Origin: Escherichia phage T7
Sequence record: MG833025.1
Reading direction: 5' to 3' (one strand)
Length of the DNA stretch: 38,553 nt
Shown here piece by piece: positions 1 through 38,553 of this stretch. The notes below the pieces were generated by a model that did not search any database, had not been told where the DNA came from, and worked only from the letters and a program-made list of their open reading frames with translations. Within the stretch, counting starts at the first letter, position 1. Each line of letters starts with the position of its first letter. A program made the translations under genes and the position numbers.

Positions 1-160
1 TCTCACAGTGTACGGACCTAAAGTTCCCCCATAGGGGGTACCTAAAGCCCAGCCAATCACCTAAAGTCAACCTTCGGTTGACCTTGAGGGTTCCCTAAGG
101 GTTGGGGATGACCCTTGGGTTTGTCTTTGGGTGTTACCTTGAGTGTCTCTCTGTGTCCCT
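1..160. repeat. Left direct terminal repeat, identical to 38394-38553
   Basis: The first 160 nt recur exactly at the right end; T7 has a 160-bp terminal redundancy. Confidence 0.95.
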
Positions 161-174
161 ATCTGTTACAGTCT

Positions 175-345
175 CCTAAAGTATCCTCCTAAAGTCACCT
201 CCTAACGTCCATCCTAAAGCCAACACCTAAAGCCTACACCTAAAGACCCATCAAGTCAACGCCTATCTTAAAGTTTAAACATAAAGACCAGACCTAAAGA
301 CCAGACCTAAAGACACTACATAAAGACCAGACCTAAAGACGCCTT
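175..345. repeat. Array of short CCTAAAG-family repeats next to the left terminal repeat
   Basis: Repeated cctaaag/acctaaag units, including the tandem agaccagacctaaag copies, are read directly; T7 has such repeats at its ends. Confidence 0.7.
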
Positions 346-387
346 GTTGTTAGCCATAAAGTGATAACCTTTAATCATTGTCTTTAT

Positions 388-410
388 TAATACAACTCAC
401 TATAAGGAGA
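388..410 (+). promoter_or_regulatory. T7 RNA polymerase promoter phiOL (left replication origin promoter)
   Basis: taatacaactcactataaggaga is a near-consensus 23-mer with +1 near 405. Confidence 0.85.
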
Positions 411-462
411 GACAACTTAAAGAGACTTAAAAGATTAATTTAAAATTTATCAAAAAGAGTAT

Positions 463-498
463 TGACTTAAAGTCTAACCTATAGGATACTTACAGCCA
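463..498 (+). promoter_or_regulatory. Host sigma70 early promoter A1
   Basis: -35 ttgact at 463-468 and -10 gatact at 485-490, at the known T7 A1 position. Confidence 0.85.
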
Positions 499-588
499 TC
501 GAGAGGGACACGGCGAATAGCCATCCCAATCGACACCGGGGTCAACCGGATAAGTAGACAGCCTGATAAGTCGCACGAAAAACAGGTA

Positions 589-626
589 TTGACAACATGA
601 AGTAACATGCAGTAAGATACAAATCG
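589..626 (+). promoter_or_regulatory. Host sigma70 early promoter A2
   Basis: -35 ttgaca at 589-594 and -10 taagat at 613-618. Confidence 0.85.
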
Positions 627-713
627 CTAGGTAACACTAGCAGCGTCAACCGGGCGCACAGTGCCTTCTAGGTGACTTAAGCGCACCACGGCACATAAGG
701 TGAAACAAAACGG

Positions 714-750
714 TTGACAACATGAAGTAAACACGGTACGATGTACCACA
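714..750 (+). promoter_or_regulatory. Host sigma70 early promoter A3
   Basis: -35 ttgaca at 714-719 and -10 tacgat at 737-742. Confidence 0.85.
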
Positions 751-924
751 TGAAACGACAGTGAGTCACCACACTGAAAGGTGATGCGGTCTAACGAAAC
801 CTGACCTAAGACGCTCTTTAACAATCTGGTAAATAGCTCTTGAGTGCATGACTAGCGGATAACTCAAGGGTATCGCAAGGTGCCCTTTATGATATTCACT
901 AATAACTGCACGAGGTAACACAAG

Positions 925-1278
925 ATGGCTATGTCTAACATGACTTACAACAACGTTTTCGACCACGCTTACGAAATGCTGAAAGAAAACATCCGTTATG
1001 ATGACATCCGTGACACTGATGACCTGCACGATGCTATTCACATGGCTGCCGATAATGCAGTTCCGCACTACTACGCTGACATCTTTAGCGTAATGGCAAG
1101 TGAGGGCATTGACCTTGAGTTCGAAGACTCTGGTCTGATGCCTGACACCAAGGACGTAATCCGCATCCTGCAAGCGCGTATCTATGAGCAATTAACGATT
1201 GACCTCTGGGAAGACGCAGAAGACTTGCTCAATGAATACTTGGAGGAAGTCGAGGAGTACGAGGAGGATGAAGAGTAA
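925..1278 (+). CDS. 0.3: Ocr, DNA-mimic inhibitor of type I restriction-modification
   Basis: 117-aa acidic protein [22 protein letters not shown]... matching T7 gp0.3, first gene after A1-A3. Confidence 0.95.
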
Positions 1279-1433
1279 TGTCTACTACCAACGTGCAATA
1301 CGGTCTGACCGCTCAAACTGTACTTTTCTATAGCGACATGGTGCGCTGTGGCTTTAACTGGTCACTCGCAATGGCACAGCTCAAAGAACTGTACGAAAAC
1401 AACAAGGCAATAGCTTTAGAATCTGCTGAGTGA
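1278..1433 (+). CDS. 0.4: Gene 0.4 small protein (51 aa)
   Basis: The ATG overlaps the 0.3 stop (taATG); [51 protein letters not shown]. It is below the ORF-track size cutoff. Confidence 0.8.
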   Translation: MSTTNVQYGLTAQTVLFYSDMVRCGFNWSLAMAQLKELYENNKAIALESAE

Positions 1434-1490
1434 TAGACTCAAGGTCGCTCCTAGCGAGTGGCCTTTTTGATTATCACTTTACTTATGAGG
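1434..1490 (+). promoter_or_regulatory. Probable RNase III processing site (R0.5-like) with the native gene 0.5 RBS
   Basis: actcaaggtcgctcctagcgagtggcc can form a hairpin like T7 RNase III sites; gaggga lies just before the ATG at 1496. Confidence 0.55.
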
Positions 1491-1495
1491 GAGTA

Positions 1496-2491
1496 ATGAG
1501 CATCGCGGCGACCCTGGAGAACGATCTGGCGCGTCTGGAAAACGAAAACGCTCGTCTCGAAAAAGACATCGCGAACCTGGAACGTGACCTGGCGAAACTG
1601 GAGCGTGAAGAAGCGTACTTCGGAGGTTCAGGTGGTAAGAACACTGGTGAAATCTCTGAGAAAGTCAAGCTGGGCACTAAGGCACTGGCTGGTCAATGGC
1701 TGGCTTACGGTGTTACTCGCAGTGTGACTAAGAGTTCAGTCATGACGCTGGCTTACGGGTCCAAAGAGTTCGGCTTCCGTCAACAAGTGCTGGAAGATAC
1801 CATTCAGCCAGCTATTGATTCCGGCAAGGGTCTGATGTTCACTCAGCCGAATCAGGCTGCTGGATACATGGCTAAGCTGATTTGGGAATCTGTGAGCGTG
1901 ACGGTGGTAGCTGCGGTTGAAGCAATGAACTGGCTTAAGTCTGCTGCTAAGCTGCTGGCTGCTGAGGTCAAAGATAAGAAGACTGGAGAGATTCTTCGCA
2001 AGCGTTGCGCTGTGCATTGGGTAACTCCTGATGGTTTCCCTGTGTGGCAGGAATACAAGAAGCCTATTCAGACGCGCTTGAACCTGATGTTCCTCGGTCA
2101 GTTCCGCTTACAGCCTACCATTAACACCAACAAAGATAGCGAGATTGATGCACACAAACAGGAGTCTGGTATCGCTCCTAACTTTGTACACAGCCAAGAC
2201 GGTAGCCACCTTCGTAAGACTGTAGTGTGGGCACACGAGAAGTACGGAATCGAATCTTTTGCACTGATTCACGACTCCTTCGGTACGATTCCGGCTGACG
2301 CTGCGAACCTGTTCAAAGCAGTGCGCGAAACTATGGTTGACACATATGAGTCTTGTGATGTACTGGCTGATTTCTACGACCAGTTCGCTGACCAGTTGCA
2401 CGAGTCTCAATTGGACAAAATGCCAGCACTTCCGGCTAAAGGTAACTTGAACCTCCGTGACATCTTAGAGTCGGACTTCGCGTTCGCGTAA
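1496..2491 (+). CDS. 1: Split T7 RNA polymerase, C-terminal fragment: Met, SYNZIP18-like coiled coil, GGSGG, Lys, polymerase residues 601-883 with apparent R632S
   Basis: Translation SIAATLENDLARLENENARLEKDIANLERDLAKLEREEAYF-GGSGG-KNTGEISEKV... runs to the polymerase C-terminus ...LRDILESDFAFA. It contains motif C (IHDSF, H811/D812) and the specificity-loop region. Confidence 0.93.
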   Translation: MSIAATLENDLARLENENARLEKDIANLERDLAKLEREEAYFGGSGGKNTGEISEKVKLGTKALAGQWLAYGVTRSVTKSSVMTLAYGSKEFGFRQQVLEDTIQPAIDSGKGLMFTQPNQAAGYMAKLIWESVSVTVVAAVEAMNWLKSAAKLLAAEVKDKKTGEILRKRCAVHWVTPDGFPVWQEYKKPIQTRLNLMFLGQFRLQPTINTNKDSEIDAHKQESGIAPNFVHSQDGSHLRKTVVWAHEKYGIESFALIHDSFGTIPADAANLFKAVRETMVDTYESCDVLADFYDQFADQLHESQLDKMPALPAKGNLNLRDILESDFAFA

Positions 2492-2510
2492 TAAAGAGGA
2501 GAAATACTAG
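2491..2510 (+). promoter_or_regulatory. Synthetic intercistronic RBS (aaagaggagaaa plus tactag spacer) after a double stop
   Basis: taataaagaggagaaatactagATG matches a standard synthetic-biology RBS part with an assembly scar; this is not native T7 sequence. Confidence 0.8.
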
Positions 2511-4463
2511 ATGAACACGATTAACATCGCTAAGAACGACTTCTCTGACATCGAACTGGCTGCTATCCCGTTCAACACTCTGGCTGACCATTACGGTGAG
2601 CGTTTAGCTCGCGAACAGTTGGCCCTTGAGCATGAGTCTTACGAGATGGGTGAAGCACGCTTCCGCAAGATGTTTGAGCGTCAACTTAAAGCTGGTGAGG
2701 TTGCGGATAACGCTGCCGCCAAGCCTCTCATCACTACCCTACTCCCTAAGATGATTGCACGCATCAACGACTGGTTTGAGGAAGTGAAAGCTAAGCGCGG
2801 CAAGCGCCCGACAGCCTTCCAGTTCCTGCAAGAAATCAAGCCGGAAGCCGTAGCGTACATCACCATTAAGACCACTCTGGCTTGCCTAACCAGTGCTGAC
2901 AATACAACCGTTCAGGCTGTAGCAAGCGCAATCGGTCGGGCCATTGAGGACGAGGCTCGCTTCGGTCGTATCCGTGACCTTGAAGCTAAGCACTTCAAGA
3001 AAAACGTTGAGGAACAACTCAACAAGCGCGTAGGGCACGTCTACAAGAAAGCATTTATGCAAGTTGTCGAGGCTGACATGCTCTCTAAGGGTCTACTCGG
3101 TGGCGAGGCGTGGTCTTCGTGGCATAAGGAAGACTCTATTCATGTAGGAGTACGCTGCATCGAGATGCTCATTGAGTCAACCGGAATGGTTAGCTTACAC
3201 CGCCAAAATGCTGGCGTAGTAGGTCAAGACTCTGAGACTATCGAACTCGCACCTGAATACGCTGAGGCTATCGCAACCCGTGCAGGTGCGCTGGCTGGCA
3301 TCTCTCCGATGTTCCAACCTTGCGTAGTTCCTCCTAAGCCGTGGACTGGCATTACTGGTGGTGGCTATTGGGCTAACGGTCGTCGTCCTCTGGCGCTGGT
3401 GCGTACTCACAGTAAGAAAGCACTGATGCGCTACGAAGACGTTTACATGCCTGAGGTGTACAAAGCGATTAACATTGCGCAAAACACCGCATGGAAAATC
3501 AACAAGAAAGTCCTAGCGGTCGCCAACGTAATCACCAAGTGGAAGCATTGTCCGGTCGAGGACATCCCTGCGATTGAGCGTGAAGAACTCCCGATGAAAC
3601 CGGAAGACATCGACATGAATCCTGAGGCTCTCACCGCGTGGAAACGTGCTGCCGCTGCTGTGTACCGCAAGGACAAGGCTCGCAAGTCTCGCCGTATCAG
3701 CCTTGAGTTCATGCTTGAGCAAGCCAATAAGTTTGCTAACCATAAGGCCATCTGGTTCCCTTACAACATGGACTGGCGCGGTCGTGTTTACGCTGTGTCA
3801 ATGTTCAACCCGCAAGGTAACGATATGACCAAAGGACTGCTTACGCTGGCGAAAGGTAAACCAATCGGTAAGGAAGGTTACTACTGGCTGAAAATCCACG
3901 GTGCAAACTGTGCGGGTGTCGACAAGGTTCCGTTCCCTGAGCGCATCAAGTTCATTGAGGAAAACCACGAGAACATCATGGCTTGCGCTAAGTCTCCACT
4001 GGAGAACACTTGGTGGGCTGAGCAAGATTCTCCGTTCTGCTTCCTTGCGTTCTGCTTTGAGTACGCTGGGGTACAGCACCACGGCCTGAGCTATAACTGC
4101 TCCCTTCCGCTGGCGTTTGACGGGTCTTGCTCTGGCATCCAGCACTTCTCCGCGATGCTCCGAGATGAGGTAGGTGGTCGCGCGGTTAACTTGCTTCCTA
4201 GTGAAACCGTTCAGGACATCTACGGGATTGTTGCTAAGAAAGTCAACGAGATTCTACAAGCAGACGCAATCAATGGGACCGATAACGAAGTAGTTACCGT
4301 GACCGATGAGAACGGAGGTTCAGGTGGTGGATCCAACGAAAAAGAAGAACTGAAATCCAAAAAAGCGGAACTGCGCAACCGTATCGAACAGCTGAAACAG
4401 AAACGTGAACAACTGAAGCAGAAAATCGCGAACCTGCGTAAAGAAATCGAAGCTTACAAATAA
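2511..4463 (+). CDS. 1: Split T7 RNA polymerase, N-terminal fragment: residues 1-601, GGSGGGS, SYNZIP17-like coiled coil
   Basis: MNTINIAKNDFSDIELAAIPFNTLADHYGERLAREQ... runs to ...NEVVTVTDEN, then GGSGGGS and NEKEELKSKKAELRNRIEQLKQKREQLKQKIANLRKEIEAYK. It contains motif A (D537). Confidence 0.93.
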   Translation: MNTINIAKNDFSDIELAAIPFNTLADHYGERLAREQLALEHESYEMGEARFRKMFERQLKAGEVADNAAAKPLITTLLPKMIARINDWFEEVKAKRGKRPTAFQFLQEIKPEAVAYITIKTTLACLTSADNTTVQAVASAIGRAIEDEARFGRIRDLEAKHFKKNVEEQLNKRVGHVYKKAFMQVVEADMLSKGLLGGEAWSSWHKEDSIHVGVRCIEMLIESTGMVSLHRQNAGVVGQDSETIELAPEYAEAIATRAGALAGISPMFQPCVVPPKPWTGITGGGYWANGRRPLALVRTHSKKALMRYEDVYMPEVYKAINIAQNTAWKINKKVLAVANVITKWKHCPVEDIPAIEREELPMKPEDIDMNPEALTAWKRAAAAVYRKDKARKSRRISLEFMLEQANKFANHKAIWFPYNMDWRGRVYAVSMFNPQGNDMTKGLLTLAKGKPIGKEGYYWLKIHGANCAGVDKVPFPERIKFIEENHENIMACAKSPLENTWWAEQDSPFCFLAFCFEYAGVQHHGLSYNCSLPLAFDGSCSGIQHFSAMLRDEVGGRAVNLLPSETVQDIYGIVAKKVNEILQADAINGTDNEVVTVTDENGGSGGGSNEKEELKSKKAELRNRIEQLKQKREQLKQKIANLRKEIEAYK

Positions 4464-4520
4464 GAGGGACAAACTCAAGGTCATTCGCAAGAGTGGCCTT
4501 TATGATTGACCTTCTTCCGG
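4464..4520 (+). promoter_or_regulatory. RNase III processing site R1.1 region
   Basis: gagggacaaactcaaggtcattcgcaagagtggcctttatgattgacc has a hairpin-capable actcaagg...gagtggcc motif like other T7 RNase III sites. Confidence 0.55.
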
Positions 4521-4521
4521 T

Positions 4522-4544
4522 TAATACGACTCACTATAGGAGAA
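4522..4544 (+). promoter_or_regulatory. T7 promoter phi1.1B
   Basis: taatacgactcactataggagaa, +1 near 4539. Confidence 0.9.
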
Positions 4545-4622
4545 CCTTAAGGTTTAACTTTAAGACCCTTAAGTGTTAATTAGAGATTTAAATTAAAGAA
4601 TTACTAAGAGAGGACTTTAAGT
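4545..4622. other. AT-rich region of the primary origin of replication
   Basis: AT-rich tract ttaaggtttaactttaag...agatttaaattaaagaattac just downstream of phi1.1B, where the T7 primary origin lies. Confidence 0.6.
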
Positions 4623-4751
4623 ATGCGTAACTTCGAAAAGATGACCAAACGTTCTAACCGTAATGCTCGTGACTTCGAGGCAACCAAAGGTCGCAAGTTG
4701 AATAAGACTAAGCGTGACCGCTCTCACAAGCGTAGCTGGGAGGGTCAGTAA
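4623..4751 (+). CDS. 1.1: Gene 1.1 small basic protein (42 aa)
   Basis: MRNFEKMTKRSNRNARDFEATKGRKLNKTKRDRSHKRSWEGQ with RBS gagagga upstream. Confidence 0.8.
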   Translation: MRNFEKMTKRSNRNARDFEATKGRKLNKTKRDRSHKRSWEGQ

Positions 4752-4752
4752 G

Positions 4753-5010
4753 ATGGGACGTTTATATAGTGGTAATCTGGCAGCATTCAAGGCAGCAACA
4801 AACAAGCTGTTCCAGTTAGACTTAGCGGTCATTTATGATGACTGGTATGATGCCTATACAAGAAAAGATTGCATACGGTTACGTATTGAGGACAGGAGTG
4901 GAAACCTGATTGATACTAGCACCTTCTACCACCACGACGAGGACGTTCTGTTCAATATGTGTACTGATTGGTTGAACCATATGTATGACCAGTTGAAGGA
5001 CTGGAAGTAA
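4753..5010 (+). CDS. 1.2: Gene 1.2, inhibitor of host dGTPase
   Basis: MGRLYSGNLAAFKAATNKLFQLDLAVIYDDWYDAY... 85 aa. Confidence 0.85.
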   Translation: MGRLYSGNLAAFKAATNKLFQLDLAVIYDDWYDAYTRKDCIRLRIEDRSGNLIDTSTFYHHDEDVLFNMCTDWLNHMYDQLKDWK

Positions 5011-5030
5011 TACGACTCAGTATAGGGACA
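5008..5030 (+). promoter_or_regulatory. T7 promoter phi1.3
   Basis: taatacgactcagtatagggaca, +1 near 5025. Confidence 0.9.
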
Positions 5031-5090
5031 ATGCTTAAGGTCGCTCTCTAGGAGTGGCCTTAGTCATTTAACCAATAGGAGATAAACATT

Positions 5091-6170
5091 ATGATGAACA
5101 TTAAGACTAACCCGTTTAAAGCCGTGTCTTTCGTAGAGTCTGCCATTAAGAAGGCTCTGGATAACGCTGGGTATCTTATCGCTGAAATCAAGTACGATGG
5201 TGTACGCGGGAACATCTGCGTAGACAATACTGCTAACAGTTACTGGCTCTCTCGTGTATCTAAAACGATTCCGGCACTGGAGCACTTAAACGGGTTTGAT
5301 GTTCGCTGGAAGCGTCTACTGAACGATGACCGTTGCTTCTACAAAGATGGCTTTATGCTTGATGGGGAACTCATGGTCAAGGGCGTAGACTTTAACACAG
5401 GGTCCGGCCTACTGCGTACCAAATGGACTGACACGAAGAACCAAGAGTTCCATGAAGAGTTATTCGTTGAACCAATCCGTAAGAAAGATAAAGTTCCCTT
5501 TAAGCTGCACACTGGACACCTTCACATAAAACTGTACGCTATCCTCCCGCTGCACATCGTGGAGTCTGGAGAAGACTGTGATGTCATGACGTTGCTCATG
5601 CAGGAACACGTTAAGAACATGCTGCCTCTGCTACAGGAATACTTCCCTGAAATCGAATGGCAAGCGGCTGAATCTTACGAGGTCTACGATATGGTAGAAC
5701 TACAGCAACTGTACGAGCAGAAGCGAGCAGAAGGCCATGAGGGTCTCATTGTGAAAGACCCGATGTGTATCTATAAGCGCGGTAAGAAATCTGGCTGGTG
5801 GAAAATGAAACCTGAGAACGAAGCTGACGGTATCATTCAGGGTCTGGTATGGGGTACAAAAGGTCTGGCTAATGAAGGTAAAGTGATTGGTTTTGAGGTG
5901 CTTCTTGAGAGTGGTCGTTTAGTTAACGCCACGAATATCTCTCGCGCCTTAATGGATGAGTTCACTGAGACAGTAAAAGAGGCCACCCTAAGTCAATGGG
6001 GATTCTTTAGCCCATACGGTATTGGCGACAACGATGCTTGTACTATTAACCCTTACGATGGCTGGGCGTGTCAAATTAGCTACATGGAGGAAACACCTGA
6101 TGGCTCTTTGCGGCACCCATCGTTCGTAATGTTCCGTGGCACCGAGGACAACCCTCAAGAGAAAATGTAA
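5091..6170 (+). CDS. 1.3: ATP-dependent DNA ligase
   Basis: 359 aa with the KYDGVRG adenylation motif (lysine nucleotidyltransferase motif I). Confidence 0.95.
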   Translation: MMNIKTNPFKAVSFVESAIKKALDNAGYLIAEIKYDGVRGNICVDNTANSYWLSRVSKTIPALEHLNGFDVRWKRLLNDDRCFYKDGFMLDGELMVKGVDFNTGSGLLRTKWTDTKNQEFHEELFVEPIRKKDKVPFKLHTGHLHIKLYAILPLHIVESGEDCDVMTLLMQEHVKNMLPLLQEYFPEIEWQAAESYEVYDMVELQQLYEQKRAEGHEGLIVKDPMCIYKRGKKSGWWKMKPENEADGIIQGLVWGTKGLANEGKVIGFEVLLESGRLVNATNISRALMDEFTETVKEATLSQWGFFSPYGIGDNDACTINPYDGWACQISYMEETPDGSLRHPSFVMFRGTEDNPQEKM

Positions 6171-38393: not shown

Positions 38394-38553
38394 TCTCACA
38401 GTGTACGGACCTAAAGTTCCCCCATAGGGGGTACCTAAAGCCCAGCCAATCACCTAAAGTCAACCTTCGGTTGACCTTGAGGGTTCCCTAAGGGTTGGGG
38501 ATGACCCTTGGGTTTGTCTTTGGGTGTTACCTTGAGTGTCTCTCTGTGTCCCT
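38394..38553. repeat. Right direct terminal repeat
   Basis: Identical to 1-160. Confidence 0.95.

Follow-up and report, generated by a model that had tools for sequence, protein, structure and literature searches.

The window analysed here is 38,553 bp long and comprises a whole T7 genome, 160-bp terminal repeats included (positions 1–160 recur at 38394–38553), from which genes 0.5, 0.6A/B and 0.7 are absent and in which one replaced block carries the phage RNA polymerase in two pieces. Judged by its sequence, the replacement is synthetic, and the window is almost certainly the genome of the engineered strain T7 JB 13-78 (GenBank MG833025), or an in silico reference built for that strain. That this engineered strain is without genes 0.5–0.7 has been published and is already known.

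To compare the window with T7, the whole sequence was aligned to NC_001604 (V01146) by blastn and checked base by base. The resulting blocks are listed in the table together with the features they contain. A single block is replaced, T7 1499–5846 (4348 bp) having given way to window 1499–4462 (2964 bp) with a net change of -1384 bp, and everything outside it is retained, terminal repeats included, save for the substitution A1467T. The value of 1384 is a net figure and not the size of a deletion, as it is made up of 1696 lost T7 bases (1499–3170 and 5823–5846), 307 gained synthetic bases and 5 doubled bases. An earlier note on this DNA had estimated that all features to the right were shifted by about 1384 bp, which suggested a single net replacement, and had proposed a whole-genome alignment as the check. 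The blastn alignment bears out both points, with a shift of exactly 1384 throughout 34,091 bp (the start of gene 1.1, for example, moves from 6007 in T7 to 4623) and with T7 sequence end to end except for one contiguous block, instead of multiple indel blocks. T7 3166–3170, which blastn joins to the block that starts with gene 1, was considered as retained T7 DNA upstream of the gene 1 ATG and rejected, as it is read as a chance overlap with TACTAG of the spacer (4/5 bases).

Blocks and features of the window, with T7 coordinates for the blocks derived from T7
Feature	Window position	Strand	T7 position	Details
T7 block, left	1–1498		1–1498	99.93% identity; one mismatch, A1467T
Gene 0.3 (ocr)	925–1278	+		Intact left flank; Pfam ocr E = 1.3e-64
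Gene 0.4	1278–1433	+		Intact left flank of the replaced block
T7 0.4/0.5 intergenic region	1434–1495	+		R0.5 stem-loop at 1441–1465; gene 0.5 Shine-Dalgarno GAGGGAG
Sigma fragment ORF	1496–2491	+		331 aa; gene 0.5 ATG (1496–1498) as start, TAA end
Synthetic block	1499–1637			SynZIP18, linker, first base of Lys codon
SynZIP18	1499–1621	+		Part of sigma fragment ORF
GGSGG linker	1622–1636	+		Part of sigma fragment ORF
Lys codon	1637–1639	+		Extra residue ahead of N601 in sigma fragment
T7 block	1638–2491		4969–5822	R632S and silent T816 change
T7 RNAP residues 601–883	1640–2488	+		R632S, silent T816 change; Pfam RNA_pol profile positions 147–376
Synthetic spacer	2492–2510	+		19 nt, TAAAGAGGAGAAATACTAG; second stop (begins TAA), strong ribosome-binding site AAAGAGGAGAAA, TACTAG
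Alpha-beta (core) fragment ORF	2511–4463	+		650 aa; TAA end
T7 block	2511–4313		3171–4973	Silent D471 change; blastn block is window 2506–4313 = T7 3166–4973
T7 RNAP residues 1–601	2511–4313	+		RPOL_N and RNA_pol profile positions 1–145; silent D471 change creates SalI site
Synthetic block	4314–4462			Linker, SynZIP17, first two bases of stop codon
GGSGGGS linker	4314–4334	+		BamHI site
SynZIP17	4335–4460	+		Peptide NEKEELKSKKAELRNRIEQLKQKREQLKQKIANLRKEIEAYK; HindIII site
T7 block, right	4463–38553	+	5847–39937	34,091 bp, 100% identity, 0 mismatches, 0 gaps; all features shifted by -1384
Right junction	4463–4622	+		T7 resumes at 5847, position -1 of deleted phi1.1A
R1.1 hairpin	within 4463–4622	+		-21.5 kcal/mol, z = -4.1
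phi1.1B promoter	4522–4544	+		Intact
Gene 1.1	starts at 4623	+		Start shifted by -1384 from T7

The right-hand block, window 4463–38553, has zero differences from the 1983 reference V01146/NC_001604. A commercial T7 stock sequenced in the PHEIGES paper differed from V01146 at two positions. Because no difference is found over 34 kb, the window sequence is probably an edited copy of the reference and not a de novo assembly, and small real differences in the physical phage may be missing from a sequence built in this way.

According to the T7 annotation, the absent segment T7 1499–3170 comprises gene 0.5 (all but its ATG), genes 0.6A/0.6B and gene 0.7, which encodes the protein kinase, as well as the E. 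coli promoters B (1514) and C (3113) and the 0.7/1 spacer. No homologue of gp0.5, gp0.6A or gp0.7 was found in the window by tblastn (best E = 0.075) or by phmmer --max against all 791 stop-to-stop segments of at least 25 aa in the six frames (best E = 0.09–0.23), whereas identical searches on T7, run as a positive control, gave E values of 1e-25 to 1e-252. For gp0.7 alone the best six-frame values were E = 0.075 by tblastn and E = 0.18 by phmmer, and no reading frame of the window is significantly similar to this protein, which in T7 belongs to the serine/threonine kinase family PHROG 2828 (phrog_2828, E = 1.6e-169). By blastn, the deleted T7 DNA has only chance-level matches of 12–24 nt in the window. 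The sole remaining product named a kinase is the nucleotide kinase of gene 1.7 (6782–7372, phrog_2585), a family unrelated to the gp0.7 protein kinase. The statements in the earlier note that genes 0.5, 0.6 and 0.7 are absent and that the window has no kinase-like reading frame are thus upheld by the missing T7 segment, by the negative tblastn and phmmer searches with positive T7 controls and by the six-frame search for a gene 0.7-like kinase that the note had itself proposed, gene 1.7 being the unrelated exception in name.

On its right side the loss extends into a promoter. The 24 lost bases T7 5823–5846 correspond to positions -25 to -2 of phi1.1A, and a promoter-consensus search shows that phi1.1A, present in T7, is absent from the window, with phi1.1B and all later promoters retained. 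The early promoters A1–A3 have consensus matches at 462–490, 589–618 and 714–742.

The block that fills the gap encodes both parts of the polymerase, and Pfam and PHROGs place its two reading frames in the single-subunit RNA polymerase family, as halves that complement each other. Their order is reversed, with the C-terminal sigma fragment first and the alpha-beta core second. The sigma reading frame reads M-SIAATLENDLARLENENARLEKDIANLERDLAKLEREEAYF-GGSGG-K followed by T7 RNAP residues 601–883, and its first codon is the ATG at 1496–1498, so that the start position of gene 0.5 is now that of the SynZIP18-sigma reading frame, in agreement with the earlier proposal that a split-polymerase cassette had taken it over. 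A start at GTG 1430, given in a mechanical list of open reading frames and situated inside the gene 0.4 end/R0.5 hairpin, was rejected in favour of ATG 1496 because the latter coincides with the start of gene 0.5, preceded by its Shine-Dalgarno sequence, and yields the published residue numbering of V133 and N145. In the spacer between the fragments, AAAGAGGAGAAA followed by TACTAG corresponds to the BioBrick B0034 ribosome-binding site plus assembly scar. The codon for N601 is present in both fragments (1640–1642 and 4311–4313), seen as a 5-nt overlap of the T7-derived blocks, and the extra lysine in front of it in the sigma fragment is probably a remnant of the transposon-based splitting method of Segall-Shapiro et al. 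A 15-nt linker sequence, GGAGGTTCAGGTGGT, also occurs in both fragments (1621–1635 and 4314–4328) and forms a direct repeat with 2.7 kb between the copies. If the copies recombined, most of both polymerase fragments would be deleted and the outcome would be lethal, in keeping with the stability of the design.

The SynZIP18 peptide of 41 aa agrees at every residue with the one printed in PMC8477956, and the nearest solved structures to the zipper in the PDB are the designed SYNZIP6, 2 and 1. In a full-text literature search only SynZIP18 was matched, with no match for the SynZIP17 peptide, and none of the zipper peptide and DNA strings occurs in the supplements of Segall-Shapiro et al. The second zipper is assigned as SynZIP17 on the basis of the pairing described by Segall-Shapiro et al. 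(2014) and Garry et al. (2018). The only SalI (3919), BamHI (4330) and HindIII (4451) sites of the genome all lie within the cassette, the first arising from the silent D471 change GAT>GAC, the second lying in the linker and the third in SynZIP17, and the KpnI site of gene 1 (T7 5618) has been removed by the silent T816 change ACC>ACG. These restriction-site changes are cloning footprints of the plasmid lineage. No phage record in the collection spans the synthetic parts (best coverage of window 1–6000, 95%), and an exact scan of IMG/VR gave no match to the junction between the gene 0.5 ATG and SynZIP18.

The features described for JB 13-78 by Garry, Ellington, Molineux and Bull (Virus Evolution 4:vey017, 2018; PMC6009699), deposited as MG833025, are all present in the window. 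In that work T7 RNAP was expressed as two peptides divided at the beta-sigma breakpoint and carrying leucine zippers, and recombination of T7Δ1 with a plasmid bearing the cassette gave JB 13-78 (PMC6009699). The authors describe a 19-base spacer with an extra stop codon, and in the window 2492–2510 is 19 nt long and starts with TAA. They also state that the ancestor is without genes 0.5–0.7 and that the T7Δ1 parent already carried the deletion (PMC6009699), and a second paper of the same group confirms that T7Δ1 is without phi1.1A. The window agrees with this parentage, with 0.5, 0.6A, 0.6B and 0.7 gone and the loss extending into phi1.1A. In JB 13-78 the arrangement arose in two historical steps (PMC6009699). 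A pre-existing deletion in T7Δ1, beginning immediately past the start codon of gene 0.5 and ending inside phi1.1A, had removed 0.5, 0.6A/B, 0.7 and 1, and the plasmid-borne cassette then recombined into the gap. As genes 0.5–0.7 were never restored, their absence is an inherited by-product of the design and neither natural nor newly evolved.

The mutations reported in Table 1 of Garry et al. provide a position-by-position comparison. At the four sites 1486 (T>G, intergenic), 1893 (T>C, V133A), 1929 (A>G, N145S) and 4297 (C>T, T596I), the published reference base fits the window exactly and the substitution yields the published amino-acid change where there is one, and the transient deletion 1180–1534 shortens gene 0.3 by precisely its last 99 bases, in agreement with the paper. 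The four right-hand sites, 17498 (gene 6.7), 22666 (10B), 33991 (17) and 36465 (19), fit the window only after addition of 38, upon which they yield exactly the published codon changes. At some point between 4297 and about 17500 (17536), the numbering of the Table 1 template and that of the window come to differ by 38 bp. This offset has no effect on the gene 0.5–0.7 finding because the latter lies in the exactly matching part.

Three other origins for the missing genes were considered. A spontaneous deletion of the early region during laboratory passage, independent of engineering, has some precedent, as such deletions are often observed when T7 is propagated in rich medium (PMC6009699), and the tetranucleotide TATA is found at both T7 edges of the missing block (1499–1502 and 5844–5847), a microhomology typical of spontaneous deletions. 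Such an event would be expected to be a simple deletion between short direct repeats and to leave a junction free of foreign DNA, whereas here a 2964-bp engineered cassette occupies the junction, fills the gap exactly and has the gene 0.5 ATG as its first codon. The T7Δ1 parent used for the recombination already carried the deletion (PMC6009699), and there is no second, independent deletion in the genome. We consider a spontaneous loss in this lineage very unlikely. The T7Δ1 deletion itself might be of spontaneous origin at the TATA microhomology, although this microhomology is not decisive for how T7Δ1 arose.

An artefact of assembly or record editing, in which genes 0.5–0.7 were present in the physical phage and omitted from the deposited sequence, would be in keeping with the resemblance of the sequence to an edited reference copy (0 differences over 34 kb) and with the 38-bp numbering discrepancy with the paper. 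It is scarcely credible given that the authors mapped Illumina reads to their template and explicitly state that 0.5–0.7 are absent from the ancestor, and that the observed 1180–1534 deletion fuses gene 0.3 directly to the zipper, which is possible only without intervening genes 0.5–0.7 (PMC6009699). A natural T7-like phage lacking a gp0.7 homologue and having a naturally split RNA polymerase has the bare absence of the genes in its favour and nothing more, and this reading is refuted by the synthetic sequence content, namely the designed SynZIP coiled coils, GGSGG linkers, synthetic ribosome-binding site, non-T7 restriction sites and laboratory mutation R632S set between flanks 99.9–100% identical to the T7 reference, with a 0.5/SynZIP18 junction unmatched in IMG/VR and synthetic parts found in no phage record of the collection.

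The engineered origin leaves one substitution within 1–1498 to be considered. A1467T lies directly 3' of the R0.5 stem, changing CCTTTATGATT to CCTTTTTGATT and the tail of the hairpin from CCUUUAUG to CCUUUUUG. T at this position is found in 0 of the 76 phage records that match the segment (best identity 98.4%). The predicted fold of R0.5 is the same with or without the substitution (-17.4 kcal/mol). The change abolishes an upstream out-of-frame ATG, and with T1467 the hairpin and T-run satisfy a simple terminator-like pattern, which is not the case in wild-type T7. It may be a PCR-derived or plasmid-borne change in the homology arm, a marker of the T7Δ1 lineage or a change affecting expression of the sigma fragment. 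It may act by terminating part of the transcription, by changing how RNase III cleaves R0.5 or by removing the upstream AUG, and gp0.7 normally stimulates RNase III. It appears unlikely that A1467T was selected, that it lowers or retunes expression of the sigma fragment and that, together with the loss of gp0.7, it explains a measurable share of the attenuation present at the outset, ascribed in the paper to fragmentation alone (PMC6009699).

The gene content, junctions and retained signals described above, taken with established T7 biology, suggest how the locus would work. E. coli RNA polymerase would start at A1–A3 and produce an early transcript comprising 0.3, 0.4, both polymerase fragments and genes 1.1–1.3. 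Since the 0.7/1 spacer is gone, R0.5 and R1.1 are the hairpins on either side of the two fragments, and processing would leave both on a single mRNA. Translation of the sigma fragment would use the Shine-Dalgarno sequence and ATG of gene 0.5, and that of the core fragment the synthetic ribosome-binding site. Antiparallel pairing of SynZIP17 with SynZIP18 would then reassemble an active polymerase acting on the unchanged class II and III promoters. The strain at first had a very low fitness of about 15 doublings/h compared with about 35 for the wild type. Over 38 h of passage its fitness recovered to about 37 doublings/h, and the polymerase stayed fragmented (PMC6009699).

The gp0.7 kinase phosphorylates host proteins of transcription, translation and RNA processing, and its C-terminal domain shuts off host transcription. 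Its loss means that host RNA polymerase and RNase III are not phosphorylated, as the earlier note remarked. An infection by this phage would be expected to proceed with neither phage-directed phosphorylation of host proteins nor gp0.7-mediated shutoff of host transcription, leaving control of the host RNA polymerase to gp2 and Ocr. As the genes for gp2 (7514–7708) and Ocr are intact in the window, the host enzyme would still be inhibited. The suggestion in the note that early-to-late switching may be altered is reasonable in principle, with a small effect expected in a laboratory host. The T7 kinase is known to be dispensable under standard laboratory growth. In natural isolates the kinase broadly counteracts bacterial defences, according to a 2026 study (PMC13645617). 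If the kinase is such a broad anti-defence factor, JB 13-78 and other T7Δ1 derivatives should be poorer than wild-type T7 at infecting natural isolates of E. coli, for a reason unrelated to the split polymerase. Where the fitness of JB 13-78 is compared with that of wild-type T7 having 0.5–0.7 and phi1.1A, the loss of these elements is confounded with polymerase fragmentation. The finding is of little value as a discovery, the deletion and cassette being published and deliberate. Its value lies in curation, where the sequence should be labelled as a synthetic construct and not as a case of natural gene loss.

When the window is compared with known systems, JB 13-78 is like it in the reversed sigma/alpha-beta order, the 19-nt spacer with an extra stop, the split at residue 601 and the SynZIP18/17 pair, as well as in being without 0.5, 0.6A/B, 0.7 and part of phi1.1A. 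Its Table 1 fits in the first 4.3 kb, whereas beyond 4297 its coordinates fall 38 short of those of the window. T7Δ1, from the Molineux/Bull laboratories, is without the same T7 material as the window, genes 0.5 through 1 and phi1.1A, but has no polymerase and needs complementation, whereas the gap in the window holds the two-piece polymerase. Wild-type T7 (V01146/NC_001604) has 0.5, 0.6A/B, 0.7, promoters B and C and phi1.1A, all of which the window is without, and its gene 1 is intact, in contrast to the split, reordered and tagged gene 1 with R632S seen here alongside A1467T. T7 Δ0.7 mutants made for work on the kinase (for example Nature 2026, PMC13645617) are without gp0.7 and hence without its kinase/shutoff domain, like the window, but unlike it they have an intact gene 1 and usually 0.5 and 0.6 too. 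The PHEIGES engineered T7 genomes (PP3843xx), which are high BLAST hits, were rejected as a source, as they contain no split polymerase and keep gene 0.7. The design of the polymerase itself is that of Segall-Shapiro et al. (Mol Syst Biol 10:742, 2014), who split T7*, the polymerase with R632S, at 601 and attached SynZIP17 to the N-terminal core fragment and SynZIP18 to the C-terminal sigma fragment. The residue-601 split, the SynZIP17/18 placement and R632S are all as in the window, but the fragments of Segall-Shapiro et al. were plasmid-borne and expressed from Ptac or constitutive promoters, whereas those in the window lie in the phage early region behind A1–A3 and in reversed order.
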